A model generated the notes under the pieces. The model had not been told where the DNA came from, ran no database searches, and saw only the letters and a list, made by a program, of their open reading frames with translations. Positions 12,129-30,985 of a DNA stretch of 64,000 nucleotides are shown here, piece by piece (within the stretch, counting starts at the first letter, position 1; the number at the start of each line of letters is the position of its first letter). The stretch spans positions 800,001 to 864,000 of the forward strand of contig CBDCXV010000010.1 in the NCBI GenBank assembly GCA_965223905.1, in the 5' to 3' direction. The position numbers and the translations under genes were made by a program. Source of the DNA: Candidatus Latescibacterota bacterium. GTDB lineage: Bacteria > Latescibacterota > UBA2968 > UBA8231.

Positions 12129-14903
12129 CTACGACCGCTCGACCCGGACCCGGTCGCCCAGCTCGAGATCGTCGAGAATCTGCCGCAGCTCCGTCTCCAT
12201 GTTCTGGGCAAACTGCGAGCCGACGCTGACCGAAAAGTCTATACCTACACTGAGGTCGTCCCCGGACCGCAGCTTGGGCAGGAGTCTGCGTCCCAGGAGG
12301 TTCCAGACTTCCGAGGGCACGGTCCCGGCCAGCCTGAGCGACGTTTTCCGATTTTCCGGACCCGGCGCGGGACCAGTTTCCGGTTCAGGCTGTTCCTGAG
12401 GAGGTTCCGTTCCCGGGACTGAAGTCGGTTCCGCCTGTTGTGCCAGGTCCCCGGGTGACGTTTTGAGTTGCCTGGCTTTTTCCCTGGTCAGCAGAAAAAC
12501 ACTTGGTTCAAACGCCGCTTCTTCCGGGCCTACCTCCTCGGCGTACCACAGCCGTTCGAAACCGCCGTTCTCCTTGCTACCTGAAGCCAGACCGAAATCC
12601 CCCTTCGACACGAACTCGACGATCTGTCGCCGAAGGGTCGCGTCCGGGTCTACCAACCTCGTCAACGAGCTGTCGAGAAAGCTTTGTCGCAAGCTTGTGA
12701 GGGGCCAAGCCCCGGTCTCTTTGAAAGCCGGCGGCCAGTTTCGGTCGATATAACCGGCCCCCACATTCTCGTTGAGCAGGGCTTCGGCCTTCAAGGCGCT
12801 GATGATCCGCCCGCAGAGCGTCTCCCCGGCGCTGGCATGGCCGGCTCCCAGGTCGACGATCTTGAGCCCGTGTCTCTCCTGGGCATCCGCGAGGGCGACG
12901 AAGCGGTACCCGGCCCATACCTCTTCCCTGGCCGCTTCCTCCGCGTCACGGACCCGGGCATGGACCTCCGAGCGATCGGCGCGGTCGTATTCGGTGCCGA
13001 GGACTCCTTCGGCCACCTCCCGTTCAACCCGCTGCCAGGCGAGCCACAGCTCGACCTTCTCTCGGAGCTCCCGCCCGGGTTTTCTGGCGCACCAGACCAG
13101 CGAGCCCGGGTAGAGCCGTGGAGAGTTGCCCCGCTCCTTCGTCCAATCGCCAATCCGCTCGGCCACCTGGTCGCCATCCCTCCACTCCGCCTCGGGGTCG
13201 AGGACGATCACCGCAAGGCGTGGAGAATCCTGGACCGCGGCGCTGTCCTCCGGGAAGAAAGCCACGGGTATGGCTGCGCCGCGTTTGAACTCCCCTTCGA
13301 TGAGCTTGCGAATGCCGGGCTTGATCTCCGTCTCTTCATCGAGGGAGGCCCGCCGATCGCTGACGACCTTCTTCAACGTCGCCTGATGGTGGATGCGGTA
13401 GCCGTCTGTCCCGACCCTGCGAATGAAGAACCCCGATTTCTCCAGGGCTGCGGCGGCGTTGTCGATGGTGGTTGTATCGACCTCGGGCTCGCCGAGGGCA
13501 AAGCGCAGTTCCGGCAGATGAGCCTCCTTGTCCACCTGCCCCCCGGAGGACTCGAACAGAATGGTCGTGCCCACCCGGCGATGGATGTCGCGAAGAGCCC
13601 CGGTTGCGTCCGCATCCAGGGCCTTTGCGTGCGCCATCGGTCCTGCAAGATCGGCTTCTACGGCCACGTCGAGCCGCGTCTCCCCCAGTTGTCCAAGGAC
13701 CACCGCACGGAATTCAGCCACGTCCAGGGGAGCCGATCCCAGGGTGATCAGCGGCTCGGTTCGCGCCTTTCCGAATTGCTCGCGGGCGGCCCATGAGATC
13801 CATTGCGCCAGCATGGCCAGCGCTCCACGGGTCTGCTGAAACTGGGGAAGGGCGCGCCACTTGCGCTGGAACACCGACAGGGTCGCCGGATGCAAGGGAT
13901 AGCTGGCCTCGAACCGGCCCCTGAGGAATTCCCTTGCCTTGGCCTCCGTCGCCGCGGTGTCGACGGCAAGCCATTCGGCCGGGAGTTGTGGCGTACGCTC
14001 AAAGCACCAGTCCGCGTAGGCCTTGCCGACCTTCCTGCGAACGCGCGGGTTGCCGAGATCCTCGAAGAGCCGGCGGCGGACCACCTCGCTGATCTCGGAC
14101 TCGTCATTGGCGATCAGGTCGCGGGCGACGCGTCGGACCACCTTGGTAATCCGTTCCTGCCACTGCTGGTCCCAGTCGGTCATTTCGACCTGACTGCGAG
14201 GAAGGCTGATGACCGCGGCGGCCCGGGTGGTACCGGTGACGGCGACGGTCAGGTTCTGCAGAAAAGCGTGGAAGCTCTCGGCCATGCCTCGGTGGCGGTT
14301 GACGAAGTTGAGCACCTCGTCGAACAGCAGCAGCACCGGGGCCTGCGCAGCAGCGCACACCTTGACCAGAGCCTCGGTCCCCGGCGGTGTGGTCTCCGCC
14401 GCCGATCCCAGAGCGGCGACCCCCTCATCTCCTGCCAGCTGCCGCGCCAGATCGATCCAGGGCGTTTCGCGGCCCTCGGACGGGTCCCAGGCATTGCCGA
14501 CGAATACCCCGACCCTGGCGGCAGGAGCTTCCGCCATCCCGGCCTCCTTCAGGAGATCGGCCACCCCGGAGTACCTGGAAGCGTCTGCGCCGGCCTGTGC
14601 AAGGTGGTAGAGCGCGGTAAGGGTATGCGTCTTGCCGCCGCCGAACTGGGTGATCAGCGTCAGGACCGGTGCCGTGTTCCCGGTCTCCCCGGCGAGGCGC
14701 CGGAGAACCATGCCGGCGTGCTCCTTCAAAGCCCGGGTGAAACAGGTGCGCGAAAAGAACTGGGCCGGGTCGCTGTAGTCTTCCGGCGCGGTTCTGGAGA
14801 GCACCTGTTCGAGGGCGATGGCGAACTCGTCCGGGCTGAACGAGCGGCCCTCGCGCACTTCCTTGCGAAGGGTCACAACCTTGTACCAGGGATCGAGGGC
14901 CAT
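12129..14903 (-). CDS. DUF499 family AAA+ ATPase
   Basis: PWYKVVTLRKEVREG..EFAIAL start, Walker A QFGGGKTH, Walker B LLFDE, SYPLHP, FQQTRGAL. Confidence 0.9.
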   Translation of the reverse strand: MALDPWYKVVTLRKEVREGRSFSPDEFAIALEQVLSRTAPEDYSDPAQFFSRTCFTRALKEHAGMVLRRLAGETGNTAPVLTLITQFGGGKTHTLTALYHLAQAGADASRYSGVADLLKEAGMAEAPAARVGVFVGNAWDPSEGRETPWIDLARQLAGDEGVAALGSAAETTPPGTEALVKVCAAAQAPVLLLFDEVLNFVNRHRGMAESFHAFLQNLTVAVTGTTRAAAVISLPRSQVEMTDWDQQWQERITKVVRRVARDLIANDESEISEVVRRRLFEDLGNPRVRRKVGKAYADWCFERTPQLPAEWLAVDTAATEAKAREFLRGRFEASYPLHPATLSVFQRKWRALPQFQQTRGALAMLAQWISWAAREQFGKARTEPLITLGSAPLDVAEFRAVVLGQLGETRLDVAVEADLAGPMAHAKALDADATGALRDIHRRVGTTILFESSGGQVDKEAHLPELRFALGEPEVDTTTIDNAAAALEKSGFFIRRVGTDGYRIHHQATLKKVVSDRRASLDEETEIKPGIRKLIEGEFKRGAAIPVAFFPEDSAAVQDSPRLAVIVLDPEAEWRDGDQVAERIGDWTKERGNSPRLYPGSLVWCARKPGRELREKVELWLAWQRVEREVAEGVLGTEYDRADRSEVHARVRDAEEAAREEVWAGYRFVALADAQERHGLKIVDLGAGHASAGETLCGRIISALKAEALLNENVGAGYIDRNWPPAFKETGAWPLTSLRQSFLDSSLTRLVDPDATLRRQIVEFVSKGDFGLASGSKENGGFERLWYAEEVGPEEAAFEPSVFLLTREKARQLKTSPGDLAQQAEPTSVPGTEPPQEQPEPETGPAPGPENRKTSLRLAGTVPSEVWNLLGRRLLPKLRSGDDLSVGIDFSVSVGSQFAQNMETELRQILDDLELGDRVRVERS

Positions 14904-16812: not shown

Positions 16813-18495
16813 CTACGCCTCCTCCTCCGTTGGATTGAGCGACTCCGCGATGCGGTCGAGTTTTTCGAGAATCTCCGGGTGGATCTCCTCCGCCATCATC
16901 TCCGCGGCCAACAGGTACAGATCCTTCTTCGGTGTGCCCCTTTCGAGATCCTCCAGCAGCGGAACGAGAAACTCCGTGCTTGCCTTGACGCGTACGAGCG
17001 ATACGTGATCCCCGAAGAGATCGGTCCCCCGGGGCACCTGCGCCCAGAAAGCCTCCTCGATTTGAGATTCGCTCAAGGGAAAATCGACGAATCGCTTGAT
17101 CGCCTCCGGCTGCAGGAGGTAGTTCTCGATCTCGTATCGGCGCCAGCGCAGCACAGCGAGCCCAGCTCCGGTGGTCTCCTCATCCGGCTCGTCTCGATTG
17201 TCTCCATCGAGAAGGCAAAGGCCGCGCAACCCCGGAAATGCCGAACGCATGGCAAAAAAATGTGCCTTCGCTTCCTGCAGGCTCCTGCCGCCGAGCCAGT
17301 GGACAAAGGGACGATCAAAAAAATGTCGCGCAGGATGCTCGAGGATTCCGACCCACTCTTTCAGTATACGCTCGTCCGTCTCGCTCTCGACGTAGAGCAC
17401 CGACCCGGCCTCCCGAGCAAGCAGCAGATCAGTGGTAGTTACTCGCTTGAGCGCTTCGCGTAGCTGGTCGCGCTCGGTCTCGCTCACCAAGGCGCGGAGG
17501 ACTTCCCCGAAAAGGCCGATCACCCGCGCCGGCTCGGTCGCATCGAGAACGACCTCGGAGTGCGTCGCTGCAATCACCTGCCCCCCACGCTCCCGGCCGA
17601 CCTTTCGGACCAAGTCGTACACCTGCTTTTGCAGAATGACGTGTTGGTGCGCGTCCGGCTCGTCGAGGAGGATTACCGTGGCGGGCCTTGCGTACAGGAA
17701 GCCGAAAAGGAGGAGCACCTGGAGGGTCCCGCTCCCTGCATTGGAAAGGTCGAGCGGCCGGGAGCGGCCCGGTTCCCGGTACTCGCATACGATATACGGC
17801 TGGGCCGGCGAGTACGAAGGCTTGAGCAACTCTATCCGAAAGAGGTCCCGGATGTGCCGCGCCAGCGACTGCCAACCCTCTTCACTCTCGCTCTCGGCAA
17901 TCTCCAGCAGGAGATTGCGCAGAATCTCGCCGGGCCGTCCCTGGCCGACGAGCAGATCTTGCATCCCCCGGTCGCGTCGCGGCTCGTCGCGCTCGATTCC
18001 CGAAAGCGGTGGGACATGGACGATGTTCAGCTGCCGAGCTTCTTGGGGCGGGAAATTCCGCAAGGACTCGCGGTCCAGGCTCTTTGCGTCGAAGGGCCGC
18101 GCGTACGCCAGCTCGGGATTGGCATACTGAAGCTCGATTCCGCACGTCCAGGTCTCCTCGTCCGCTTGTCCTTCTACGACGATCTCGATCAGCCGCCGCG
18201 TCCCGGACATGCCGCGGGGACCTGTGACCTTCCGGTCCTCCCAAAGGAGATTCATCTCCCTTAGCGGGACCGCGGTGATGTCGGGGCGCGGGATGGCGAC
18301 ACCTGAACGCTCTACCGCCCTTCCGCCTTCGCGTTGGGCAACCCATCGATCGAGCACGAACTTCCAGAGTACAATCGCCTGGAGCAACGTGGATTTCCCG
18401 GCGTTGTTCGGCCCGGCGAGGACGACCGAGTCCGCCAACTCGAACGCCTGGTCGCGGAACCGCTTGAAGTTCCTGATTTCTACGCGTCTGATCAC
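16813..18495 (-). CDS. ABC-type ATPase fused to TOPRIM-like domain (OLD/PARIS-like architecture)
   Basis: GPNNAGKST, GSGTLQ, LLDEPDAHQH, ATHS; C-terminal YVESETD, LLDGD, RYEIENYLL. Confidence 0.85.
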   Translation of the reverse strand: MIRRVEIRNFKRFRDQAFELADSVVLAGPNNAGKSTLLQAIVLWKFVLDRWVAQREGGRAVERSGVAIPRPDITAVPLREMNLLWEDRKVTGPRGMSGTRRLIEIVVEGQADEETWTCGIELQYANPELAYARPFDAKSLDRESLRNFPPQEARQLNIVHVPPLSGIERDEPRRDRGMQDLLVGQGRPGEILRNLLLEIAESESEEGWQSLARHIRDLFRIELLKPSYSPAQPYIVCEYREPGRSRPLDLSNAGSGTLQVLLLFGFLYARPATVILLDEPDAHQHVILQKQVYDLVRKVGRERGGQVIAATHSEVVLDATEPARVIGLFGEVLRALVSETERDQLREALKRVTTTDLLLAREAGSVLYVESETDERILKEWVGILEHPARHFFDRPFVHWLGGRSLQEAKAHFFAMRSAFPGLRGLCLLDGDNRDEPDEETTGAGLAVLRWRRYEIENYLLQPEAIKRFVDFPLSESQIEEAFWAQVPRGTDLFGDHVSLVRVKASTEFLVPLLEDLERGTPKKDLYLLAAEMMAEEIHPEILEKLDRIAESLNPTEEEA

Positions 18496-18497
18496 GG

Positions 18498-21461
18498 TTA
18501 CCGCGGCACCGCCAGCAGCATGGCGTCGAGGAGCCGCTTCTCTTCGCAGCCGCGCGGGTAGAGGGCGGAAAGCGCGTTGGCGAGCCGCAGGAAGCCGGGG
18601 CCGCGCTCCTGCTCGCCGCCGATCAGCGACCGCAGGGCGTTTGCGTGGCCGCTGGACTGGAGCAGCATGGCCTGGTGAATGCGGTCGAGGGTGGTGTCGC
18701 CGGACCCTTCCTCCCCGGCTCCGTATTCGGGCCTCCTCTCCCTCACCAAAAGAGCCGCGTCTTCCGCCCGGTCGGAGAATAGCTCCTGCTGTAGCGGCTC
18801 CCTGCGACCAGCGGACTCCTCCAGCCTCGTGGCGCCGGACGCAGCCCCCTCTTCACCGAAGAGCTTCCTGGCACGTTCCGAAACCGGCAGCAGGCGCACG
18901 ACGCCCTTTTCCTGGCCGATAATGCGGTCGGTCCAGGAGTCGAGGTCGATGCCCATGGGCTGGGCGAAGCGGCGCACCACGTCGAAGGGGAGAGAAAACC
19001 CGGCTGATGCTACCTTGGCGACGGCTTCTTCGTCTGCCTCCTCGTCTTGTTCCTGATTATCTGCAACAGGGGTTGTGCTCTGGAGCGTCCACAGGAAGAG
19101 CGCAGTCAGGCGGGCGTCCTCTTCCAGGGCGCCGGACAGGCCGTTGCGCGCTTGTGCCTCCGCGGTTCCGAGCACCTGTTGCAGCGCCGCACGGCCGACC
19201 ACTTCCCAGACCTTCTCCAGGTACTCGGGGAGGCCGACCGTATGGCCCTCGGCAGTTTCGACGGCGCGGTAGCGGCTGAAGATTTCGAGTGCGGGGCCGA
19301 TGCAGGCGAAGACCAGATCGGCGCCTCGGATGCCTTCGGTCTGCAAGCGCTCGATCCAGTCAGCGACGCGGATCGGCAGTTCGCGCAGGACATCGGCCCA
19401 GTCGCCGATGGGGGCGTCTTCGGGACGTGGGCGGCAGATGAGGTGGACGCTGGTGGTGAGTGCAGCGGAATCGCGGGCGCGCAGGCGCGACGCCATTTCG
19501 GTAGCGATTGGCCAGGAGCCGGTGATGGTCCAGCCGCCGCGAATCATGCCCGAAAGCAGTGCCTCCCAGCCCTCGGTGGTTTTGTGAGCGAAGACCACTG
19601 AGCCGACGCCGTCTTCGCTTAGAATGCGGCGGCCCTCGGTGAAGGCTTTCGCCATGCCATCCTCGAAGAACTGCTTGTCTTTGTGACCGTAGCGATCACG
19701 ATCCCAATGCGCCATCTCGCATAGCTCTGGTCCTTTGGGTGTCAGCGAGTTCTCTGGAAAGCGAGAATTGAGCAGCAGCAAATGTTTAGGAAGGGTTCGT
19801 TTCAGCCAGACATAGAAGAAGTCAGAGAGGTCGGCGTAGGGTACCGCAAAGTAGTAGGGCGGATCGGTGAACCAGACCCCGGCGGTCTGGTCGGGGAGCG
19901 GATGGTCGGTAGCGTCGGCTGATTGGGTCTGACCGGTTGTAGCAAGAGCGCCTTGCAGTTGTAGACACTCGACTGTCTTTGCGCCCCACTCGACGGCGGC
20001 TACGTAATTGCCGGAAGAATCACACCACGGATTCACCTCCGTGTAATCCCAGATCATGGGCAGTGCTTGCCTGCCGTAGGTGTGATTTACTTTCTCGCCT
20101 GTCAAATGCCAAGAGCACAGAGCTGACCAGTAGTCGGTGGATCGGTCCAAAGCTATTGCGAGAAGGTCCCGAAGTGGCACGTTGGTACTTCCCTTGCTTC
20201 GTGTCAGCGCGCCTAGCTCCAATAGTGCCACCTTCTGCCGTGCTGTGAACAAGTCGCCCCATGTGTTCATACCGTACAGCGGTACATTGAAAGTGCCGCT
20301 CATCAGGGGCAACGGCTCATCCGGCACCGGGCAAAGCCCCTGTTTCCCGCCCCGCTCCCATTCATCCAAGACCAGCGCCACTCGCTCCTGAGCCTTTCGC
20401 ACCGCCTCGTAGTCCGCGTCCCTCGGCAGCCGATAGTGCCGCCCCGCCCTCCCAGGCTTGAGCGTCACCACCGCGGTCATCCGCGCCCCGCCCGTCCGCC
20501 GCCCCTCCGCATCGAAAATCACATCCGCGCCGCCGCGCTCGGCCGCAAGCTGCGCCCGCACCCGCTCCGGCGGCAGCACCGCGCCGCAGCACAGACAGGT
20601 CGCCCGCGCTCGCGTCACCGTGCCGCCGTACACCTCTTTTTCCACCTGCGGCTCGAATACCTCAAACTCGACGCCCGGTGGCTCTACCTCGCTGCGCTCG
20701 ACTCGATGCCGCAACGCCCGCTTGCGCTTGGCCTTCTTGCACAGCCAGAACGAACGCATCAGCGGAATCTCCGCGCCGCAGTTGGGCGCTTCGCAGCGCA
20801 CCGTGCGCGCCCACAAATAGGCAATCGGCGTCGCCCCGTCCGGGTCCTTGGGATACAGATCCGCCAACTCCTGCTCCGCCTGCCGCTTGATCTCGTCGCC
20901 GACCCGGCGCAACTCCTCAGCCAGCCCCGACCCGTGCCGCGGAATGTCCTCCAGCATCACTTTGAGAATCAGGCACGCCACCGGATTCAGGTCGCTGGCG
21001 AACGCCTCGCAGCCCAGCCGCAACGCCTCCAGCGGAATCGAGCCCCCGCCCGCAAACGGGTCCACCACGAGGGGCGGTTCTTCGCCATGGGCCGCCTTCA
21101 CCAGGTTGCGCCCCACCCGCAGATAGACCGGATGCGCCGACATGTCCCAGTTAGCGAAGTTGGCGATGAACCAGAGCAACGCCTTGCGCAGGTCTGCGTC
21201 ATCAACCGGCGGCTGGCGCACTTCCCGCAGGATCTCCCGTGCCTGCCGCTTGAATCCCTCCGGGCATTCCGGATCGCAAGGATCCGGCAGCAACAGCGCC
21301 ATCAACACCGCCCGCGACGAAGCCAACGGCCGCCGCGCCCACCACAGGTGCAGCGTGCTCGGATGCCCGTGCCGAATCGACTTCTCCCTCGCCGCGTGCT
21401 TGGAAACCTCGGCAATTGGAAAATCAACTTCGGCGAGACGCTTGCATTCTCTGGGGATCAT
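18498..21461 (-). CDS. DUF1156 family DNA adenine methyltransferase
   Basis: Start MIPRECKRLAEVDFPI (ATG 21461); LHLWWARRPL, motif I DPFAGGGSIP, motif IV TDPPY, zinc ribbon CEAPNC..CLCC. Confidence 0.92.
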   Translation of the reverse strand: MIPRECKRLAEVDFPIAEVSKHAAREKSIRHGHPSTLHLWWARRPLASSRAVLMALLLPDPCDPECPEGFKRQAREILREVRQPPVDDADLRKALLWFIANFANWDMSAHPVYLRVGRNLVKAAHGEEPPLVVDPFAGGGSIPLEALRLGCEAFASDLNPVACLILKVMLEDIPRHGSGLAEELRRVGDEIKRQAEQELADLYPKDPDGATPIAYLWARTVRCEAPNCGAEIPLMRSFWLCKKAKRKRALRHRVERSEVEPPGVEFEVFEPQVEKEVYGGTVTRARATCLCCGAVLPPERVRAQLAAERGGADVIFDAEGRRTGGARMTAVVTLKPGRAGRHYRLPRDADYEAVRKAQERVALVLDEWERGGKQGLCPVPDEPLPLMSGTFNVPLYGMNTWGDLFTARQKVALLELGALTRSKGSTNVPLRDLLAIALDRSTDYWSALCSWHLTGEKVNHTYGRQALPMIWDYTEVNPWCDSSGNYVAAVEWGAKTVECLQLQGALATTGQTQSADATDHPLPDQTAGVWFTDPPYYFAVPYADLSDFFYVWLKRTLPKHLLLLNSRFPENSLTPKGPELCEMAHWDRDRYGHKDKQFFEDGMAKAFTEGRRILSEDGVGSVVFAHKTTEGWEALLSGMIRGGWTITGSWPIATEMASRLRARDSAALTTSVHLICRPRPEDAPIGDWADVLRELPIRVADWIERLQTEGIRGADLVFACIGPALEIFSRYRAVETAEGHTVGLPEYLEKVWEVVGRAALQQVLGTAEAQARNGLSGALEEDARLTALFLWTLQSTTPVADNQEQDEEADEEAVAKVASAGFSLPFDVVRRFAQPMGIDLDSWTDRIIGQEKGVVRLLPVSERARKLFGEEGAASGATRLEESAGRREPLQQELFSDRAEDAALLVRERRPEYGAGEEGSGDTTLDRIHQAMLLQSSGHANALRSLIGGEQERGPGFLRLANALSALYPRGCEEKRLLDAMLLAVPR

Positions 21462-21530
21462 AGTATGCGTTCCTCGGCCCATTGGACGAGCGCTTTGAGA
21501 ATCTCGATGGGTTCCCGGTATCCCCGCTCG
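21458..21530 (-). pseudogene. Possible C-terminal remnant of a HEPN-domain gene once coupled to the methylase
   Basis: YREPIEILKALVQWAEERIL* ends in an ATGA overlap with the methylase start; resembles HEPN C-terminal helices. Confidence 0.35.
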
Positions 21531-21611
21531 TATTCCGAAGTGTAGTCCTTGGAACTCCAAGGGATCCAGTTCCTCAATGCGACTGATTTTTCTTTCTCGT
21601 GCCGTGCATAT

Positions 21612-23918
21612 CTACGAGGCGACATGGTCATGTTCTCCCAAGTAGAGGATGTCGCACCGGATCTCCAACCGCTTCCGCTCGCTGGCTTCCGGCTGGAAGT
21701 CGTTCGCGATTTCATTCGGGACCGGAATGAAGGTTCGATCTTTCGCGAGAATAGTCGAGGTGATCCTAGGCCCACCTCCGGACGCAGAACCAACAAGTCC
21801 AGGACAAAGGATGTCGTAGTAAAGGCCGAAGCGTCTTGAGTGATGCTGGAATATGAAAATGACTTTTCGGCCACCCCAGACCACTTCCGTTGAATGCGGC
21901 TGAAGAAAGAAGTCACCCTTTTCGCGTTGAACTCGGTCACTTAACGAGAGAAAGCAGGTATATCCGTTGACCGGTTTCTCGCCCGTTAGAATACGCGCGC
22001 TCGTCTCCTTCTCCCGACGGTCAATTCCGGGTCTAGCATCAAAGAGGTCTTGAAGGTCTTCTTCAGTAGTCTCTTCTCTAATCTCACTGACAACCGAAGA
22101 AAGTGGTTCCGTGCTCGCACCGCTCACATCAAGGACTGAACGATCCCTATCGATCAGCCGTCGTGCCGCTTCGACATTCGTTAGTCGTCCGGCACGCAAT
22201 TCCTCGAAAATCTCGTCGAGATCGGCTTTGTCATCGAGCTCATATTCAAACAGTTCTCTGTTAGAACGAAGATGCATCAAGAATGCCTCGGCCCCTTCTC
22301 GTGTCCTGCTAGGTACGAGCTTCGCAATTCTTGGAAAGACCACAGATCGAACGAAGTCCTTTACGAAGGGGGCAAACGCGTTGTAGTCATCGCGATAAAG
22401 AACGAGCAATGGAGCGACGCTTGAAGAATCGGGGTCGAGGTAGATTATCACTGGCACTTTGGTATCAGTTATGAGAAGCGGTAGCCCGCCAGAGATGGTC
22501 CCGAAACGGATGTCGACTCCAAGGAAGTAGTCCTCTTCAAGGATCAGGGCCACACGAGTCGCGAGAGCCGAGTGAGCGAAACTCTGACTCGACATCGGGA
22601 GCTCCTGCTTCACCCGAGGGGTAATATCGACCTCTTTGACTCCTTGCGTAGTTAGGTAGCCAAACTCGCAGTTGCGCCGAGGTCCCCGTCGGGAAAGCAC
22701 AATAAGAGGTTCATCCTCGCTAGCGTATGTCTGGATTACCGATTCATCATGCCCACTGTAGTACCGAACACCACTGCGTTTTACTAGCGAAGAGAGTACT
22801 TCGAGTTTTCCGGAAGGTCTGGGTACTACCTCCAGCTTGCCGCAGAGTGCGAACTGTCCTGTTGCGGTAATCCATTGGAGAAAACCATCGTTTGCGAAGG
22901 ATTCGTCATGCTTGGCAGCAAGTGGAGAAATCAGGTTGTCTAGTGCCCAAATAATTTGCTGTAGAAGTTGATTTGAAGAAGCGTCCAGGGCTTCACGGCC
23001 TGCTGTGGGCTTCAGGATCGAGAGATCAACCACCCCGCCCCACTGGTACCCAGACTGCATTGCGACTGTCGAAAGACCGAATCCAGAACGAAGTGTGCGG
23101 ATAGCATTGCGGGCTTGCAGCAAGACGATTGTACCGGGCTTTCCGTGCCCAGTCGCCGACCGGACCTTCTTTAGAACGATGCGGAGTTCGCCCGAAGCCA
23201 TCCCAAGAAGCTCCAGGTCACCGGAAACGATTCCTGCAAGCGATATTCCTTGGCGGTGTTCAGCCCAGGCGTGCCGTCCGGAAGGAAGCGCGGTCCTATG
23301 GCTAGCACCACTGATCATATCGCCGTTGAAAAAGACCGGAATGTCAACGAACTCGACGAACTCGTGCAAATACGCACGCGCTTCCTGAACGGATACCCCA
23401 CTTGTGCGGGAAAAGTGAGCTCGCACTATGGTACCTGGTTCGCCCTTTTGGGGGATTGGTTTGACCGAGATACTCTGTGTTTCCGTTGAAAGTTCTGACT
23501 TCAGCACCGACGACAACGTACGTTCGCCTGTTACCGCCGACTCACTCTCAACCAAAAGTTCATCGGCGACGCCGAAGTTTGCCATCGCCCCGATCCCGAA
23601 CGTGCCCACCACCCCAGCCGCCCGAGCAGCGTCGGTGTTCTTGCCGCTCTTCCCCGCATACCAAAAGTTAGTTTCGATTTCTTTTGGGGTCATCCCGATG
23701 CCGTTATCAGACACGATGATCTGTTCATCATCGACGGTTACTCCGATCCTAGATTCAAACTCATCGCCATGCGCCTCTCTCATGCGGATTGCATCGAATG
23801 CGTTCTGCGTGTTCTCTCGAAGGAGAGCCAGTGGCGACTGGTAAATCTGATCGGCAAGCAATTCAAGAATCCGGGAGAATTCGACCTTGAAGGCGATTCT
23901 CTTCTCAGTTGAATTCAT
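21612..23918 (-). CDS. HSP90/HtpG-like GHKL ATPase with long unknown C-terminal region
   Basis: FKVEFSRILELLADQIYQSPLALLRENTQNAFDA, DNGIGMT, GTFGIG, GT motifs. Confidence 0.85.
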   Translation of the reverse strand: MNSTEKRIAFKVEFSRILELLADQIYQSPLALLRENTQNAFDAIRMREAHGDEFESRIGVTVDDEQIIVSDNGIGMTPKEIETNFWYAGKSGKNTDAARAAGVVGTFGIGAMANFGVADELLVESESAVTGERTLSSVLKSELSTETQSISVKPIPQKGEPGTIVRAHFSRTSGVSVQEARAYLHEFVEFVDIPVFFNGDMISGASHRTALPSGRHAWAEHRQGISLAGIVSGDLELLGMASGELRIVLKKVRSATGHGKPGTIVLLQARNAIRTLRSGFGLSTVAMQSGYQWGGVVDLSILKPTAGREALDASSNQLLQQIIWALDNLISPLAAKHDESFANDGFLQWITATGQFALCGKLEVVPRPSGKLEVLSSLVKRSGVRYYSGHDESVIQTYASEDEPLIVLSRRGPRRNCEFGYLTTQGVKEVDITPRVKQELPMSSQSFAHSALATRVALILEEDYFLGVDIRFGTISGGLPLLITDTKVPVIIYLDPDSSSVAPLLVLYRDDYNAFAPFVKDFVRSVVFPRIAKLVPSRTREGAEAFLMHLRSNRELFEYELDDKADLDEIFEELRAGRLTNVEAARRLIDRDRSVLDVSGASTEPLSSVVSEIREETTEEDLQDLFDARPGIDRREKETSARILTGEKPVNGYTCFLSLSDRVQREKGDFFLQPHSTEVVWGGRKVIFIFQHHSRRFGLYYDILCPGLVGSASGGGPRITSTILAKDRTFIPVPNEIANDFQPEASERKRLEIRCDILYLGEHDHVAS

Positions 23919-25339
23919 GAGATCATCTTTCTAGCGGTAATTGTGGCAGTCAACTCTTCAAACAGAGCACGGTCAACGATTGCCGACGCAGCATTAAGGC
24001 GTACCGCAGCTTGGTCGAATCGACGAGCGTCCAAGAGCAGCGAGGTGACCTTAACAACCTCGTCGACGCTTTGGGGTGGGTCGAGAAGTTTGATCAATTC
24101 CTCCTGCCGTCCCAAACCCTCCAAGGCCCTGATCTTGATCTGGCGTTTTTCATGTGAATGGGACGTGTTAATCTCAGCGAGAAGTTCCAATGCTCTCTCG
24201 TATTGTTCGGTGGCTACCGCCGTCATCGCGTCATCGAGTCGTTGAGTGGGGGTAGGTGGTTTAGGACGTGAAGGCGAAAGTGGGAGGTTTAGCTTGATGA
24301 AGGTCTTACCGCCGAAGTCGTCCCGATGGGCGCCGGTGAAGACGCCCCCTGATGACATCGCTCGTACATGAACGGTGACTGAGTCGCTGTTTGGATCGAT
24401 GACGACGATGTTGAATTGGCGTCGCTCTCCCGTGGGGAGTTCACGGTCGCCCACTGCAATGGATCCCGCACCTACGACTGCCATCGAGGTCAGGTTCGGC
24501 AGACGGAGTTCAAAGGGTGCTGCACCAGGATAATGCTGATGTCCGTGCAGTCCGACGCTGAATCCGAAATCGATAAGTTTGTGGATGACACGTTGGTCCA
24601 TATAATCGTTTACTCGTGGTCCGCCGACAACGCTGTGGTGCCAAACGGCAACGGCAATCGGGGCATTCGAGCCCACAAGTAGTTCCCGCGATGAGGATAG
24701 TGATGCTGAGTCGATCTCCCCCACGTGGCAAAAGCAGTCATTCCCGTGCCAAGAGGCGAATCCCACAATAACGAGACCGAGAGACGGATACTCGAAAAAA
24801 ACGAGGTCACTACCACTATGCGACAATGGACTTGGATCTAACCCTGCATAGAAGTCTGCTCGAAATCGTCGGAAGTGTTTGAGGCGAGATTCATACAGAT
24901 CGCTGTCGCGGATCTCGTAGGCTTTCTGCTCCTTCCAGTTCCAGCGCACCCTTGAATTGGCCTCAAAGGCCTTCCTTGCGATCCCGTCTGGACCCGTTGC
25001 GAGAGGTTTCATCGCGTTTCGGGCGCGGCCCCAGTGAACATCGTGGTTTCCAGGGATGATTACGACGCGCGACAGATCGGCATCGACAAACTCGGCTGCC
25101 AGCCGCTGTAAGAAATCGGAGGTCTCAGAGTATTGGGCTGCGATCTCGGAGTCGGCATTGGGAGTGTCGATACATGCGCCTTGAACTAGGTCACCGCTCA
25201 CCACGACTAGGTCTGGACTCGGGATCCCTTCTCTGTTCCACCGCCATGCGTCGCTCGCGATTGCCGCGAGAAGCTCATTGTTGCTTAAACGAGGCCCCGA
25301 CGTTCGGTGTAGGTCAGAGACGTGAAGGAGAGTAGGCAT
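23915..25339 (-). CDS. Calcineurin-like metallophosphoesterase with C-terminal TPR-like helices
   Basis: SDLH, SGDL, PGNHD, WHH, HGHQH; C-terminal EQYERALELL..ALEGLGRQEE..ARRFDQAA; ATGA overlap with the HSP90-like gene. Confidence 0.85.
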   Translation of the reverse strand: MPTLLHVSDLHRTSGPRLSNNELLAAIASDAWRWNREGIPSPDLVVVSGDLVQGACIDTPNADSEIAAQYSETSDFLQRLAAEFVDADLSRVVIIPGNHDVHWGRARNAMKPLATGPDGIARKAFEANSRVRWNWKEQKAYEIRDSDLYESRLKHFRRFRADFYAGLDPSPLSHSGSDLVFFEYPSLGLVIVGFASWHGNDCFCHVGEIDSASLSSSRELLVGSNAPIAVAVWHHSVVGGPRVNDYMDQRVIHKLIDFGFSVGLHGHQHYPGAAPFELRLPNLTSMAVVGAGSIAVGDRELPTGERRQFNIVVIDPNSDSVTVHVRAMSSGGVFTGAHRDDFGGKTFIKLNLPLSPSRPKPPTPTQRLDDAMTAVATEQYERALELLAEINTSHSHEKRQIKIRALEGLGRQEELIKLLDPPQSVDEVVKVTSLLLDARRFDQAAVRLNAASAIVDRALFEELTATITARKMIS

Positions 25340-25490
25340 TAATTACGCCTCGCAGGGATTCCGCGTGTAAGCAGATGCTGCATCAGTCCGATCTTTGATA
25401 TGCTGTTGGTTGACGATCAAAGTTTCCGTCTCCTACCGCTAGGTCTCCAGTAGCGATGACCTCACCCATAGGTCATCGCGCAGAAAGCGC

Positions 25491-26327
25491 TCAGGCGATT
25501 TCCTCAACCCAGTCCCCCTCCTTCCACAGTCGAACCGTGAATCCGTTCTCCTCCTCGATCAGATCGGGCTCGGTCCCGTTGTGGGCGAGCATTCCGGGAA
25601 TAATCTTTTTCCGCACGCCCATGCCGCTGGGATCGACGTATCCATAATCGCGCATCACGTTTACCAGCGTCTGGTTGCGCGCGTAGCGCGCGCCGGAGGC
25701 AATTTTCTCAGGGGTCAGCATATGGGGCAGGTTCCCGGGACTTACGATTTCCAGGCGATTCGTGAAGATGGCCAACATAACCTCCGCACCTGCGATGCCG
25801 TAGTCGCGGTGGACGAGGGCGTTCCCCACGGCTTCCCTGATCACGCTCTCGGGATATTCCAGGACATCGGTTTTCCCGGCGCCTTCCAAGCCCGCCGTCG
25901 TCGTATTTCGCCGCACGAAATCCCAAGCCTGATCGACCAGCCCTGACTCAATCAGGGAACCGTCTCGAGCGCGCAGTGGAACCAGAGGTCCTCTCAAGTC
26001 CTCATCGGCAAGGATAGTATTCGGGTTCTCGCCGGAATAGCAGATGGCCCGGATGCCTGATTGAGGAAGGAACCGCTTGGGATTCTTCCCGAACAGCAGC
26101 ATCCCGTCCATGGTTACGGCCGTCCACTCCGGGGAGATCGCGGCCAGTCTCAGGTTCAAGACCCACTCCTCGACCTGGTTATCTCCTGGAACATCGCCAC
26201 CCAAGACGCTAACGAAGTAGTCCCGCAGGCGGCCCAGGTCGAGGGTGTCGATGCCGGCGCCCGGCACCGGATTCAGGGGGTATTGTAACTGTCGCGACGC
26301 TTGGTACATCTCCGCCGCCTTAGTCAC
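25491..26327 (-). pseudogene. N-truncated ATP-binding protein (RecG-C/HATPase_c_4 type; AlbA_2 domain missing)
   Basis: LLFGKNPKRFLPQSGI, YPESVIREAVGNALVHRDY, RLEIVSPGNLP, RNQTL, GMGV; begins mid-protein at MYQASRQLQY. Confidence 0.7.
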
Positions 26328-27447
26328 CGCGGTATTCCGGGCGGGTTTTCGGCATTACGGCATCGGCAAGCGGGAGACCGCCCTCCAGCAGATCGCGGAG
26401 TTCCTGGAAGGATGCAGCCGGCAATACATCGGCGCCTTCTGTTTTGGGAATGATCAGCAGCGTCTCGTCGAGCCCGATTCCCTCGTCCTTCAACAAGTCG
26501 GGTGAGTGGGTGCTCAGGAAGATCTGTCTCCCGGTTTTCCTCTGAACCCGGGCCAGCATCTGCGGCAACGCCCGGACGATTTCCGGATGGAGCGAGAGTT
26601 CAGGCTCTTCGAGGAGCAGGGGCCCATCCTTTTCCATGGTCGACCAGAGGAGCCCCATGAGCCGCAACGTCCCGTCGGAGAATTGCTCTTCCGTCTGCCA
26701 GGCCCCCTGTGGGCGCCAGTGTTGGTATTTACCCCGCAGGTGAGGTGTGCCGCGTGCATCGCGCCACAGATCGATTTCTTCGAGCTGCGGAACGGCGATC
26801 CTGAGGGCTTTCTGTATGCGCCTCAGCCGGGCATTGCGGGTCCGCTCCTGGGTTTTTGTTACCTGTTCGAGGAAATCCCCCCCGAAAGGATCGTTGGTTC
26901 GCCCGACAGAACGATCCGGTTCGCGCACAAGCTGTGGGACAAGGTGCAGGTAGCGGATGGATGTGAAGAACTCTGCCAGGGAGCGAAATGGCTTGTTGAC
27001 GTTTACCTGCTCGAGGTGGGTTTGCCTCAACCGCACCCGATCATCCTCGTCGTCACTGTCGGGGCGGTCGACCAGCTTTTTTTCATCCTGCAGCACACGC
27101 TCCATGTGGAGCAACGGCCGGCGCTGATTGTCCTGGGAAAAGGCGAGCTCATACCTCCACCGAGCCCCTTCGGTTCCTTCCTGCAATTCGACATGGACTT
27201 CGATGTCCGGATTCCGGCGGGCGGCCAGGCACCGGATGGCACTGACCCCACCGCGCCGTCGGACCGCCTCCTGAAAGCCGCCACCTGTAGATGCGAGATC
27301 ACCCAGAAACCGGAAGACGTCGAGGAAGTTGGATTTACCCGATGCGTTGGGCCCTACGAGAAACACGCGGTCCTCTAGGGCGACCTCGATGTCGGCGAAG
27401 TTTTTCCAATTGCGCAGGCGCAGTCTCCGGATCTTCAGGTCACTCAT
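26320..27447 (-). CDS. AAA_21/ABC-type ATPase
   Basis: GPNASGKSN, FSDGTLRL, LLEEPELSLHP, STHSP. Confidence 0.9.
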   Translation of the reverse strand: MSDLKIRRLRLRNWKNFADIEVALEDRVFLVGPNASGKSNFLDVFRFLGDLASTGGGFQEAVRRRGGVSAIRCLAARRNPDIEVHVELQEGTEGARWRYELAFSQDNQRRPLLHMERVLQDEKKLVDRPDSDDEDDRVRLRQTHLEQVNVNKPFRSLAEFFTSIRYLHLVPQLVREPDRSVGRTNDPFGGDFLEQVTKTQERTRNARLRRIQKALRIAVPQLEEIDLWRDARGTPHLRGKYQHWRPQGAWQTEEQFSDGTLRLMGLLWSTMEKDGPLLLEEPELSLHPEIVRALPQMLARVQRKTGRQIFLSTHSPDLLKDEGIGLDETLLIIPKTEGADVLPAASFQELRDLLEGGLPLADAVMPKTRPEYRGD

Positions 27448-27451
27448 CGCT

Positions 27452-30400
27452 TCATCTCACTTTGGATTTGTCCCGAACCTCCATCGGCTGCTTCAGGGCA
27501 TTCACGCTCAGGTAGTAGTGTTCCACCTTGGTAAACTCCCGCCAAGGGAAGCGCGCTGGATCACCTATCGGCTTCTGAAGCTCAGGTGCGCTGGCGCAGT
27601 TGGTCACCACGTAGAGCCAGTAACAGTCGCGCCGGTCCTCCGCGACGCGGCGCTCGTTCGGCGTCAGCAGGATACTTCCGGCGGCGCCGGCGAGACCCTT
27701 CACCTCGATGAGGCGCAGCTCCCCGGACTGTAGATCGAGGCTGGTCAGGTCGTACCCGAGGTCCTTCTCATGGACGTCCACTACCTGGCGTCCCTTCGCG
27801 GTCTCGTGTTCCATGACCACCTGCATCGCCGTCATTTCGGTTTCGGGATGCGGACGCAGGCCCCGGACGTCCAGGGTGTCGCTTTCGGGATGGGGAAGAA
27901 CGAGGGCGCTGGCGAGCCGCTCTACTCCCTGAAGGGTCACGGCTCGCTGCCGCTTGAGCTCCTCGCGCCGTCGCTCGCGACGCTCCCGCACCTCCGCATG
28001 GCGGTTCTCGGCCTGCGCCAGACGCCCTTCGGCCCCGGTTACTCCCTCGTCCACCTCTTCATCAGCCCGGCCGATCTCGTCGTCCGCCCGTTGCAGCACC
28101 TCCTTCAGCGACATTTCGACGTGCTCGGCAATGCGGTCGACCTCGGCAAACCGCTCGTTGCGCACCTCGTCGATGAACGGGATCAGGGCTTGTTCGTTCA
28201 GCCAGGCGGTAGCTTCCGGAAGCGAGGACGCAGCCGGCAGGAAATCCGGCGCCGCGGTGGGAGTCAGGTTGCCGAGGATATCCGGCTCGCGAAGACAGGG
28301 TGAGGCCCCATCCGTCAGCTCCACGGTGAACAGCCGTTCGTGGATGATCTGTCCGAGACCGTCGACGACCTTCGCTCTGTAGAAGTCGAGGCGGGCGGGA
28401 GTTTCGTGGGCTAGTGAACGGAAGCATGCCCCACGGGCACAGGCGTCTCGGCCGAGATCGAGGCTGTGGCGGCGCAGGGCTTCGAACAGCGGATGTCCGG
28501 GGGTCACCCATTCGAGGTGGTGCTCCTCCGCGGTGTCCCGGTCCGTCGAAAGGCGCGGATAGCGAACCGCAAGCTCCGGGAGCTTCCAGTCCGGCATGCG
28601 CTCGTATTTTTTCAACCCGGGCGGCACGCGAGCCGGGTCGAACGTATGCGCCAGGTTTCTCACCGGTTTCAGGACCAAGCCCGAAAACTGCGCGCATTCC
28701 TTGATGAACCGCGCGATGGTCTCGGGAACCAGGCGCCTTTCCTGGGCCCGGGCGCGGCGCTCGATGAGCATGTCGAGATTGAGCTTCTTGGCGGCCAATC
28801 CCTCCAGCGCCGTCTGGCAGATATTCCGGAAATGACCCTCGTCCACGTCCCTCAGGAGCCGGTCTTCGAAGTCTTCCTCCCCAAGCCTGCCGGCGTAGAA
28901 GTCGCGCAGCACGCGCTCCACGTGCGCGGACGGCAGGATCTCGCCCACGACGTTGAATACCGCGTCGTCATCGAGGGCGTCGCGGATCTCCTGGAGCTTG
29001 TCCAACAGCCGCTGCAGGACCCGTCCCTCGATGGTGTTGGTGGCGACGAAATTGAAGATCAGGCAGTCTAGCCGCTGTCCGTACCGGTGGATGCGCCCCA
29101 TCCGCTGTTCGAGGCGGTTCGGGTTCCAGGGGATGTCGTAGTTGAAGAGAATGTGGCAGCACTGGAGGTTGATTCCTTCTCCGGCCGCCTCGGTAGCGAC
29201 CAGGACCTGTATCTCCCCTTCGCGGAACTGCTGCTCGGTGTAGAGCCGGGTTCCCGGTTCGTCGCGGGAGCCGGGTTTCATGGCCCCGTGGATGCAGCCG
29301 ACGCGGAAGCCCCAGGCTTTCAGCTGTTCCATCAGGTGGTCGAGGGTGTCCTTGAACTCGGTGAACAGCAGCAGCCGCTGGTCGGGCCGGTCGAAGAACC
29401 CCTCCTCCTGCATGATCCGCCGAAGATGTCGGAGCTTCGCCTGGCTGCCCGGGCCTTCGACTGCTTTCGCCTCCCCGGCAAGCTCCAGCAGCTCGGCGAT
29501 CTCTTCCCGCACCTGCCCGGCGTTGCCGGCCAGGGTGATCGCTTCCAGCATCCTTTCCAGGCGCTCGCGCTCCGCGTCCTCGAACTCCTCGAGCTCTTCC
29601 AGACCGGGAAGATCAGGGGGCGCGGTTCGAACCACTTCCTGGGCCCGGCTTAGGCCCTCCTCCAGGCGCTTTGCCCGGTTCTCCAGCGAACGACGCATGG
29701 CGTAGGTGCTGGAGGCGAGACGCCTCTGGTACAGGGACATCAGGAAACCGACGGCTCGCGCCCGCGGGTCGTCATCTTGGGCCGCGGCTCGGGTGCATTG
29801 CCGCTTTACGAAGCGGGTGACTGCCTGGTACAGGTCGAACTCGGGGCCATCGATGGCGAAGTCGGCGGTACGTGGGATGCGCTTGGTGAAGACCGGCTTG
29901 GCAATCCAGGTTCCGTCCTCATGGCGCTCCGGGAAATAGACCATCGCCTCCTTGGTGCGCCGCAGGTAGAAGGGGGCGCGCCTCTTGTCCATGGCATCGC
30001 GGATCGAGCTTACGTCGGCGTAGGCGTCCCGGTCGAGAAGCTGCAGGAAGAGGCTGAAATTCTGTGGGTCCCCCTTGTGCGGAGTGGCGGTCAGCAGCAG
30101 CACGTTTTCGGCGCTGTCGCGCAGCAGTTCCCCCAGCCGGTACCGCTGGCTCTTGTGCGTCTCGTCGCGCGCCGACATGCGGTGCGCCTCGTCGACGATC
30201 ACCAGATCCCAACGCACCTGAGCCAGTCCGGGAAGGATCTCGGTGCGCTTGGCGAGGTCGAGGGAGGTGATGATCTGCTTCTGCTCCATCCACTGGTTGA
30301 CGCCGAACTGATCGCGGATGTCGCTGCCTTTCAGCACCAGGAACTTCTCCTCGAACTTCTCCTTGAGCTCGCGCTGCCATTGGAACGTCAGGTTCGCGGG

Positions 30401-30898
30401 GCAGACGACGAGAACCCGTTCGATAAGGCCACGAAGCTTGAGTTCGCGAATCAGGAGACCGGCCATGATGGTCTTGCCTGCTCCTGCGTCGTCGGCGAGC
30501 AGGAAGCGCACGCTTGGCAATTTGAGGAAGTGATCGTAGACGGCTTCGAGCTGGTGCGGCAGGGGGTCCACCCGCGAAATGGACAACCCGAAATAAGGGT
30601 CGAATTCGTAGGCGATGCCGAGCGCGTAGGCCTGAAGGCCGAGACGCAGAAGCCGTCCGTCGCCGTCGAAGGAAAGAGCGGAATCGGCGATGGTCAGGTC
30701 GGCAATGTCATCCGCCGTAAGGGTGACCTGACGAAACTGCTCCGACTGCTGGCCGACGAGTCCTGCGACCCAGATTCCGGGACCATTCGAGCCAACGGTA
30801 ACCACTCGCATAGGCTCGCTGAACAGCGAGCCGGACAGGATCTGTCCTTCCCGGATGGCGGTCTCAGCACTCAACGGGATACTCCTGTTTCCAGCCAT
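27452..30898 (-). CDS. SNF2-family helicase with C-terminal DUF3883 (NO VEIN-like) nuclease domain
   Basis: PLPHQLEAVY, LADDAGAGKT, DEAH, TATPH, GEGINLQ, WNPNRLEQRMGRIHRYGQ; C-terminal GYDL..IEVKG..LTPNE. Confidence 0.93.
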   Translation of the reverse strand: MAGNRSIPLSAETAIREGQILSGSLFSEPMRVVTVGSNGPGIWVAGLVGQQSEQFRQVTLTADDIADLTIADSALSFDGDGRLLRLGLQAYALGIAYEFDPYFGLSISRVDPLPHQLEAVYDHFLKLPSVRFLLADDAGAGKTIMAGLLIRELKLRGLIERVLVVCPANLTFQWQRELKEKFEEKFLVLKGSDIRDQFGVNQWMEQKQIITSLDLAKRTEILPGLAQVRWDLVIVDEAHRMSARDETHKSQRYRLGELLRDSAENVLLLTATPHKGDPQNFSLFLQLLDRDAYADVSSIRDAMDKRRAPFYLRRTKEAMVYFPERHEDGTWIAKPVFTKRIPRTADFAIDGPEFDLYQAVTRFVKRQCTRAAAQDDDPRARAVGFLMSLYQRRLASSTYAMRRSLENRAKRLEEGLSRAQEVVRTAPPDLPGLEELEEFEDAERERLERMLEAITLAGNAGQVREEIAELLELAGEAKAVEGPGSQAKLRHLRRIMQEEGFFDRPDQRLLLFTEFKDTLDHLMEQLKAWGFRVGCIHGAMKPGSRDEPGTRLYTEQQFREGEIQVLVATEAAGEGINLQCCHILFNYDIPWNPNRLEQRMGRIHRYGQRLDCLIFNFVATNTIEGRVLQRLLDKLQEIRDALDDDAVFNVVGEILPSAHVERVLRDFYAGRLGEEDFEDRLLRDVDEGHFRNICQTALEGLAAKKLNLDMLIERRARAQERRLVPETIARFIKECAQFSGLVLKPVRNLAHTFDPARVPPGLKKYERMPDWKLPELAVRYPRLSTDRDTAEEHHLEWVTPGHPLFEALRRHSLDLGRDACARGACFRSLAHETPARLDFYRAKVVDGLGQIIHERLFTVELTDGASPCLREPDILGNLTPTAAPDFLPAASSLPEATAWLNEQALIPFIDEVRNERFAEVDRIAEHVEMSLKEVLQRADDEIGRADEEVDEGVTGAEGRLAQAENRHAEVRERRERRREELKRQRAVTLQGVERLASALVLPHPESDTLDVRGLRPHPETEMTAMQVVMEHETAKGRQVVDVHEKDLGYDLTSLDLQSGELRLIEVKGLAGAAGSILLTPNERRVAEDRRDCYWLYVVTNCASAPELQKPIGDPARFPWREFTKVEHYYLSVNALKQPMEVRDKSKVR

Positions 30899-30985
30899 TA
30901 TCAATTTCTTTGCCCTTCTGGCATGGCTTGCTTGATCCCATTCAGGAGTGCCGAATCGCTCCCAGTACCTGCGGAGGAGGAGATC

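Follow-up and report, generated by a model that had tools for sequence, protein, structure and literature searches.

Within a stretch of 64,000 nucleotides of Candidatus Latescibacterota bacterium DNA (assembly GCA_965223905.1, contig CBDCXV010000010.1, positions 800,001-864,000 of the forward strand; hereafter the window), two adjacent genes form an obligate two-gene module that lies inside an Hma defence operon. Gene 1 encodes a calcineurin-like metallophosphoesterase, the predicted effector, and gene 2 a divergent paralogue of HSP90. Very probably the pair acts against phages or plasmids, as a module of a class that relies on an HSP90 switch. The reading that we prefer, with a probability of roughly 0.6, is that of a self-contained, horizontally mobile two-gene module directed against mobile elements, which sits as cargo in a slot of the Hma operon and in which gene 1 would supply the effector and gene 2 the ATP switch.

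Judged by their conservation, genes 1 and 2 are real genes and not chance open reading frames (ORFs), since the homologue clusters number more than 2000. When 8000 candidates were scored, at least 2682 gene 2 homologues were found at E<=0.001; the best 120 of these are 71-100% identical and 759-786 amino acids long, and full-length family members of about 770 amino acids occur down to 28% identity. In an exhaustive search of representatives at 50% identity, 2093 clusters passed a limit of E<=0.001 and 160 passed one of E<=1e-30. A first-pass annotation of the window had described two genes of lower GC content joined by an ATGA overlap: both ORFs, the shared ATGA and the drop in GC (0.52-0.55 at 21500-25499, compared with 0.64-0.68 downstream in the methylase gene HmaB and 0.60-0.65 upstream) were found again. 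A scan of 21300-25700 for regulatory sites was uninformative: it detected no promoter-like site and a single terminator-like site within gene 1, fewer than in shuffled sequences.

The two genes travel together. In 12 of 14 genome loci (66-78% identical), a gene 1 homologue that aligns over at least 432 residues is found upstream of gene 2; of the remaining two, one is cut by a contig end, with the gene 1 tail still visible, and the other is degraded (L014). Among 80 metagenome loci (39-71% identical), a gene 1 homologue is directly upstream in 71, which is every locus that could be tested, as the other nine have less than 565 nucleotides of upstream sequence. Five further loci are on viral contigs, and gene 1 is present in all three that are testable. 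The four-nucleotide stop/start overlap is kept in 75 of the 82 loci at which both ends can be placed. All-vs-all clustering of 798 ORFs from 94 loci yielded two conserved genes (86 and 81 loci), with the next cluster restricted to 5 loci, and no third conserved gene was found beside the pair. This adjacency bears out the coupled two-gene module that had been proposed from the window alone.

The same genome carries, on another contig, a second, divergent pair (L019, G000:C9:884000-902000, positions 7583-11606 on the minus strand), which has an overlap of eight nucleotides and encodes a 593-amino acid Metallophos protein and a 749-amino acid HSP90-like protein. These are 23% and 26% identical to the window proteins, the latter over the full length. 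Because the pairing persists in a copy that is only about 25% identical, it is strong sequence evidence for functional coupling of genes 1 and 2. The phosphoesterase of this second pair matches the PADLOC models PDC-S60 (E 4e-41) and 'Effector' (E 3e-27); its neighbours encode a NOV_C/Mrr_cat protein, a TerB-DnaJ protein and EcsC. One metagenomic protein of 766 amino acids (P0199) runs in a single frame from the C-terminal half of a gene 1-like protein and its tail into a gene 2-like N and middle domain: this is either a natural fusion, and as such weak Rosetta-stone evidence, or an artefact of assembly or gene calling. The genome has a third match to the HSP90-like N domain (L017, G000:C2:516544-520053, positions 334-2037 on the minus strand; E 1.6e-20), in a 319-amino acid ORF that is followed by one of 247 amino acids; this could be another paralogue, split or truncated.

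The assignment of gene 1 to the calcineurin-like metallophosphoesterase superfamily is based on motifs, Pfam match and fold. All five motifs that the first-pass annotation had listed (DLH, GD, GNHD, HH and GHQH) are present in the translation, and the residues D9, H11, G49, D50, G97, N98, H99, D100, H234, H235, G266, H267 and H269 are invariant among 40 homologues, as are R12, W103, R132, W135 and D201. Pfam Metallophos (PF00149) matches residues 3-271 (E 4e-13). Sequence profile searches with gene 1 against the PDB gave nothing significant. In an AlphaFold model built from the 40 homologues (pLDDT 88.8), residues 1-353 are closest to Lmo2642, Rv0805, GpdQ, SMPDL3A/B and PhoD (VIA-align Z 19-22), the top structural neighbours being nucleotide and cyclic-nucleotide phosphodiesterases (Z 20-22).

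The closest family model is one from defence: the best NCBIfam match of gene 1 is DS9_1, an anti-phage phosphoesterase, and the match, though weak, spans the whole catalytic domain (E 2.8e-10). Of 105 longer relatives with the gene 1 domain, all carry the phosphoesterase domain and many add NACHT, ORC-CDC6-like AAA+, Ras-like GTPase/WD40, TIR/AAA_16 or SAVED domains. This is how immune proteins that have an N-terminal effector and are switched by an NTPase are built. Gene 1 is a predicted effector, perhaps of the kind that is elsewhere fused to NACHT, ORC-CDC6-like, Ras-like, TIR or SAVED modules (the 'Calcineurin conflict effector' type).

The C-terminal tail of gene 1 is harder to place. The TPR-like helices proposed for it are present as seven modelled helices (residues 364-473), and residues 361-474 superpose on TPR proteins (VIA-align Z 11.1-11.4, root mean square deviation 3.0-3.2, 114 aligned), but Z falls below the caution line of about 13 that applies to helical repeats and the Pfam TPR_19 match is not significant (E 0.11). 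The TPR-like nature of the modelled tail is suggestive, not decisive. Conservation within the protein is lowest in the tail, with a pairwise identity of 0.25 compared with 0.47 in the catalytic domain. When the whole gene 1 model was used as Foldseek query, the best match was Bacillus subtilis YydB in an integrative model of YydD-YydB (9a6c; E 2.8e-16, template modelling (TM) scores 0.51/0.51, 539 columns), at 12% identity and a root mean square deviation of 19.5 Å, with the domains placed differently. To judge from these models, YydB probably has the same architecture of phosphoesterase plus tail, and it too has a partner protein, YydD, which is probably an ABC/SMC-type ATPase. An ABC ATPase of the window, used as query, did not retrieve YydD.

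Gene 2 has the HtpG-like GHKL N domain that had been noted earlier: it matches Pfam HATPase_c_3 (PF13589), and its residues 5-200 match the NCBIfam HSP90-family model PRK14083 (92 bits, cutoff 455). By sequence, it finds the N domains of TRAP1, HtpG and GRP94 in the PDB (E 1e-9), and a gene 2 profile reaches E 3e-22 with PDB Hsp90 N domains. The residues E35, N39, D71, G73, G75, G105, G108 and G110 are invariant among 46 homologues and the ATP residues align with those of TRAP1. An AlphaFold model built from these homologues (pLDDT 86.3) resembles Hsp90 well beyond the N domain: Foldseek aligns it with full-length TRAP1, HtpG, Hsc82 and GRP94 (E 4e-21), and in VIA-align residues 11 to about 530-556 align through the C-terminal domains of TRAP1, GRP94, Hsc82, HtpG and HSP90-beta (Z 22-24). 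The middle domain has an invariant PTAGR motif, whose R308 may, by its position, correspond to the catalytic arginine loop of Hsp90. At the level of the modelled fold, gene 2 is a member of the HSP90 family, with predicted Bergerat N, middle and C-terminal dimerisation domains. Of the approximately 550 residues previously left unassigned, those up to about 535-556 can now be attributed to HSP90 middle and C-terminal domains, whereas the beta-rich extension still lacks a match.

Gene 2 is a divergent HSP90 paralogue and not an ordinary HtpG. Its score with the NCBIfam HtpG model is 61.4 bits, far under the cutoff of 371 for a full-length equivalog, and NCBIfam HSP90/HtpG matches are confined to residues 5-225. 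The genome of the window has its own HtpG, and hhalign aligns this protein only with residues 3-211, the N domain. That gene 2 might be an ordinary full-length HtpG, which the first-pass annotation had named as a finding that would speak against its proposal, is excluded by the HtpG score and by the separate genomic HtpG. In comparison with canonical HSP90 proteins (HtpG, TRAP1, GRP94, Hsp82), gene 2 shares the three-domain fold and the ATP-binding motifs, but identity is 14-18%, sequence likeness is restricted to the N domain, there is an extra C-terminal region of about 200 amino acids, and the protein has an obligate phosphoesterase partner and a patchy, mobile distribution.

The extra C-terminal region is the second most conserved part of gene 2 (pairwise identity 0.38, compared with 0.28 in the middle domain); among the 46 homologues, W681, Y700, Y701 and P732 do not vary. 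VIA-align, in standard and wide searches, found no PDB structural match past residue ~556; Pfam, at E<=10, returned only DUF7527 (E 0.014) for the C-terminal ~170 amino acids, and an ESM Atlas feature search with the C-terminal domain returned unnamed clusters only (0.76). An idea drawn solely from the invariant aromatic residues is that this domain might form a PUA-like nucleotide pocket. It is the best candidate for recognition of a cue or for docking of the effector, and, because it is conserved, a constant ligand would be more plausible than a variable phage protein.

A possible mechanism is the following. Translational coupling would produce both proteins in fixed proportion, and these would form a complex in which the phosphodiesterase is held latent. 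The HSP90-like protein would sense an infection cue through its client-binding surfaces or through the extra C-terminal domain; the cue would trigger ATP-dependent clamp closure by the HSP90-like dimer, and the phosphodiesterase would be released or activated. It would then degrade dNTPs, NTPs, NAD+ or nucleotide signals, possibly nucleic acid, and phage replication would be arrested. A nucleotide substrate is favoured because of the structural neighbours of gene 1 and the precedent of PUA-Cal-HAD, the one studied Calcineurin-CE system, which depletes dNTPs according to the available part of its description (10.64898/2026.01.15.699771). The HSP90-like dimer would play the role of the STAND NTPases and small GTPases that are fused to the same effector domain in relatives; HSP90-like NTPases are viewed as STAND analogues in the available text of two preprints (10.64898/2026.10.19.760177, 10.64898/2026.09.30.754977). 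Complex formation, trigger and substrate are what we infer for the pair. A complex prediction with full-length gene 2 and the gene 1 tail (residues 352-474) returned no answer (score 0.00, mark 0.32) and says nothing either way. Only tentatively do we suggest a more specific version, in which the complete HSP90 paralogue is both infection sensor and ATP switch, its W/YY beta domain binds an infection-derived small ligand or a conserved phage component, and clamp closure frees a nucleotide-degrading phosphodiesterase that is docked via its TPR-like tail.

The structural neighbours of both proteins also allow a different machine, one that is directed at DNA in the manner of restriction: the GHKL protein would clamp DNA, like MORC, MutL or topoisomerase VI-B, and the metallophosphoesterase would cut it, like Mre11 or SbcD. 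Mre11, SbcD and nucleases of the Rad50 complex are indeed near gene 1 (Z 14-16.5), but the nucleotide and cyclic-nucleotide phosphodiesterases outscore them. MORC2, ParE, SMCHD1 and MutL match gene 2 in its N domain and transducer part (Z 15.7-18.5), but these matches end at residue ~345-366 and only Hsp90 chains reach residue ~535-556. The pair sits among DNA-targeting systems, and the PADLOC 'Effector' model that the phosphoesterase of the second pair matches is described as an endonuclease; in neither protein was a Pfam family found beyond Metallophos and HATPase, hence no DNA-binding domain. On balance a DNA-directed machine seems improbable to us.

The distribution of the pair is patchy. 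It is present in 2 of 168 genomes of the phylum (E<=1e-40), one of them the genome of the window itself, and in neither of the two genomes of the same genus. By the titles of their records, the genome loci come from Dehalococcoidia/Chloroflexota, Acidimicrobiaceae, Gemmatimonadota/Longimicrobiales, Ca. Marinacidobacterales and Ca. Poriferisocius. Several copies are decayed or hit by transposons: in one locus a Mutator transposase lies between genes 1 and 2 (L008), in another gene 1 is split into two ORFs (L009), in a third gene 2 is split in two and gene 1 shortened (L013), and in the degraded locus L014 gene 1 is reduced to its last 69 residues beside a transposase and gene 2 is in three pieces. 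High identity across records titled as several phyla, the lower GC content and these decayed or transposon-hit copies indicate that the pair is horizontally mobile.

Such mobility, together with the strict coupling by overlapping stop and start codons, the decayed copies beside transposases (L008, L014) and the frequency of HipA, Fic and transposase genes among the neighbours, would also suit an addiction module, in which the HSP90-like protein keeps a toxic phosphoesterase folded and inactive and the island is stabilised without any sensing of phage. We give this little credence: known antitoxins are far simpler than an ATPase of 768 amino acids whose catalytic residues are invariant and which has a further conserved domain, and relatives of the effector domain occur in fusion with NTPase and sensor modules of immune type.

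The neighbourhood is consistent with the preferred reading, a mobile defence module. Genes of defence or mobile type, classed by our own reading of Pfam names and counted without a baseline control, lie within two genes of the pair in about 30 of 58 metagenome loci and in 10 of 14 genome loci; the metagenome scan comprised 144 ORFs, the two nearest of at least 150 amino acids on either side, three very long ORFs being excluded. The neighbours include DNA methylases, Eco57I-type enzymes, XhoI, McrBC, Mrr, type I HsdM, TIR (3 loci) and Shedu SduA_C (2 loci), as well as SMODS, Cap17-like, Schlafen/AlbA_2, NERD, HEPN, HipA, Fic, DUF499, SNF2, integrases and transposases. Several points weigh on the other side, in addition to the way in which neighbours were classed and counted: a defence phenotype is deduced from genomic context only, and housekeeping genes flank the pair in some loci (genome loci L002, L010 and L013, metagenome loci L032 and L099). 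Moreover, the likeness of gene 1 to Calcineurin-CE effectors is weak (39.7 bits with DS9_1 at a cutoff of 420), as is its match to PADLOC PDC-S60 (E 6e-6), and, with Mre11 and SbcD among its lower-ranked structural neighbours, a nucleotide is no more than a candidate substrate.

In the window, the first-pass annotation had placed the pair between the helicase and the methylase of a defence operon, and these two genes are recognised by PADLOC as HmaA and HmaB. HmaA, HmaB and HmaC occur together on one strand, as PADLOC asks for an Hma system, and the pair is located 51 nucleotides upstream of HmaB. When the operon is set beside its orthologues in six related genomes (seven operons in total), HmaA and HmaB prove to be 74-97% identical while the DNA between them differs; the junction of HmaA and HmaB is therefore a variable cargo slot. 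This slot holds the pair in two of the seven operons, that of the window and that of G140, where the two proteins are 88% and 87% identical, the pair is again directly upstream of HmaB and a PDC-S09-like gene adjoins. Of the five slots that lack the pair, four hold at least one HEC-05-, PDC-S02- or PDC-S09-like gene plus ORFs that PADLOC does not match, and the fifth (G142) holds PADLOC-unmatched ORFs only. The same-genus genome G103 (L111), compared with positions 18498-30904 of the window, has an HmaA that is 97% and an HmaB that is 82% identical, with different cargo between them, a mosaic that suggests recombination at the cargo slot.

Embedded cargo genes between Hma core genes have been described by Payne et al. 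(10.1101/2024.01.29.577857, as far as the available text goes). The HEC and PDC candidates of that study have the same nested layout, and HEC-01 is in the same operon as our pair. The pair itself is not among HEC-01 to HEC-09, as the text of that paper, supplements aside, contains no phosphoesterase, HSP90 or GHKL; nor is it matched by any of the PDC multi-gene models of PADLOC-DB 2.0.0.

The position inside the operon, with the same layout in G140, raises the question of whether the pair is an accessory of Hma that acts only with HmaABC. One metagenome locus with a DUF499 neighbour and one with an SNF2 neighbour would fit this, but most loci have no Hma genes near the pair, five of the seven related Hma operons lack it and the second copy in the same genome is outside any Hma operon, all of which makes an accessory role very unlikely.

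The first-pass annotation had further drawn an analogy with eukaryotic PP5, and this holds as domain logic only. Phosphatases of the phosphoprotein phosphatase (PPP) family are characterised by the signature GDxHG / GDxVDRG / GNHE. Gene 1 has SDLHR, SGDLV and GNHD instead, and the best 50 rows of a wide structural search with gene 1 include no PPP phosphatase; a PP5-like identity of gene 1 was rejected on these grounds. Neither the sequence of gene 2 nor its homologue alignment has a conserved EEVD-like acidic C-terminal tail. A housekeeping pair of chaperone and protein phosphatase, like HSP90-PP5, would share the combination of phosphoesterase, TPR-like helices and HSP90-like protein, but it is highly improbable, given the phosphodiesterase-type motifs and structural neighbours, the missing acidic tail, the absence from 166 of the 168 phylum genomes including both of the same genus, the lower GC content and the separate HtpG of the genome.

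How new is the pair? As the first-pass annotation had it, it is not a named system: no model in PADLOC-DB 2.0.0 or NCBIfam r20 names either protein, and both scans gave only weak domain-level matches. The description as 'undescribed' is probably outdated, since a preprint on the Tiamat system (10.64898/2026.09.30.754977), in its available part, credits Nicastro et al. 2023 with the prediction of prokaryotic Hsp90-like defence proteins that are coupled to calcineurin-like or HD phosphoesterase effectors. The adjacency of genes 1 and 2 is the same HSP90-like/calcineurin-like linkage. In that secondary summary, however, the HSP90-coupled systems have an N-terminally fused effector and variable, fast-evolving C-terminal sensors, whereas our pair has a separate effector gene with a TPR-like tail and an ATPase whose C-terminal domain is conserved. 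PF13589 is present in none of the 105 longer gene 1 relatives, and the sole fused representative is the fragmentary P0199. Most likely, within what the available sources cover, the pair is a member of a predicted kind that is experimentally untried as a class, rather than of a new kind, because a systematic survey of the neighbourhoods of this effector family would be likely to meet so common a dyad; if the prediction by Nicastro et al. lists only fusions, the pair is a new split variant. The literature, covered in part and supplements aside, yielded no experimental test of an antiphage system of HSP90 and metallophosphoesterase, only the secondary mention in the Tiamat preprint.

Other known systems share single components with the pair. 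PUA-Calcineurin-CE-HAD, DS-9 and Metis have a calcineurin-like 'conflict effector' as catalytic core, which gene 1 may share, in line with DS9_1 as best, though weak, NCBIfam match (10.64898/2026.01.15.699771; PMC13092281, both as far as available), but the pair has no Pfam PUA domain and no conserved HAD partner, the partner being an HSP90 paralogue instead. Tiamat (TmtA) and sacsin-like GHL ATPases have, in the available text, the same defence-associated Hsp90/sacsin-like N-terminal ATPase (10.64898/2026.09.30.754977). Gene 2 differs from Tiamat in that it has no Pfam DUF3684 or NOV_C and no PADLOC Tiamat match; its match to the NCBIfam sacsin N domain is weak (E 3e-5) and the structural match to sacsin SR1 has a Z of 9.9, compared with 22-24 for Hsp90. 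Lamassu with a phosphoesterase effector needs an SMC/ABC-type LmuB, whereas the only conserved partner in our pair is the HSP90-like gene.

The positions of the two genes, of their domains and of the Hma core genes are listed in Table 1.

Table 1. Positions in the window of genes 1 and 2, their parts and the Hma core genes
Feature	Position	Strand	Description or basis
Gene 1	23915..25339	-	ORF, 474 aa, ATG start; calcineurin-like metallophosphodiesterase (predicted) with helical tail
Gene 2	21612..23918	-	ORF, 768 aa, ATG start; divergent full-length HSP90 paralogue
Gene 1 catalytic domain, residues 1-353	24281..25339	-	VIA-align neighbours and invariant metal motifs
Gene 1 C-terminal helical TPR-like tail, residues 361-474	23918..24259	-	seven helices in AlphaFold model
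ATGA stop/start overlap of genes 1 and 2	23915..23918	-	read directly in the sequence
Gene 2 N-terminal GHKL ATPase domain, residues 1-205	23304..23918	-	PF13589 and PDB Hsp90 N-domain profile match
Gene 2 HSP90-like middle and C-terminal (dimerisation-type) domains, residues 206-556	22251..23303	-	VIA-align
Gene 2 extra C-terminal region, residues 557-768: helical linker and conserved beta-rich domain (~631-760)	21615..22250	-	
HmaA (SNF2 helicase with NOV_C)	27452..30904	-	PADLOC HmaA, E 6e-168
HmaB (DUF1156 methylase)	18498..21560	-	PADLOC HmaB, E 8e-123
HmaC (DUF499-type ATPase)	12129..14903	-	PADLOC HmaC, E 2e-95

Besides the pair, the interior of the Hma operon contains a HEC-01A-type ATPase with a 278-amino acid partner, an OLD-like ATPase of 560 amino acids and a complete HEC-01 pair. 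The latter lies between HmaB and HmaC (HEC-01A at 15558-16688, E 2.5e-118; HEC-01B at 14941-15666, E 1.6e-59; both on the minus strand) and is likewise of lower GC content (0.52-0.53 across 14941-16688). The second HEC-01A-type ATPase (26320-27447, minus strand, E 1e-160; whole unit 25491-27447) has as partner not a TOPRIM HEC-01B but the 278-amino acid protein, which has HATPase_c_4 and a weak likeness to pAgo-associated PNTD regions; longer relatives of 424-425 amino acids are present in the same slot of G141 and G139. The two proteins may represent an undescribed variant of HEC-01. The 560-amino acid AAA_15/AAA_21 ATPase (16813-18495, minus strand) is directly downstream of HmaB and, by sequence, comes closest in the PDB to an OLD-family endonuclease (E 1e-6). 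Two more paralogues of the DUF1156-type methylase, 34-40% identical to HmaB, are encoded on the same contig (G000:C10:1403131-1404789 and C10:670657-673368), and the genome therefore has several Hma-like systems.

The pair is a well-supported addition to the cargo embedded in Hma operons and supports 'guilt by embedding' as a route to discovery. With 160 clusters at E<=1e-30 the family is large, and it is compact (two genes, 3.7 kb) and offers clear mutational targets. If the pair defends, it would extend the emerging theme of calcineurin-like effectors that degrade nucleotides, and it would provide an experimental handle on a class that is so far only predicted, in which the place of the STAND/NLR switch is taken by an HSP90-type ATPase. 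Should the HSP90 paralogue itself turn out to be sensor and switch, an HSP90 machine would for the first time be open to experiment as an immune receptor and not as a helper of immune receptors.

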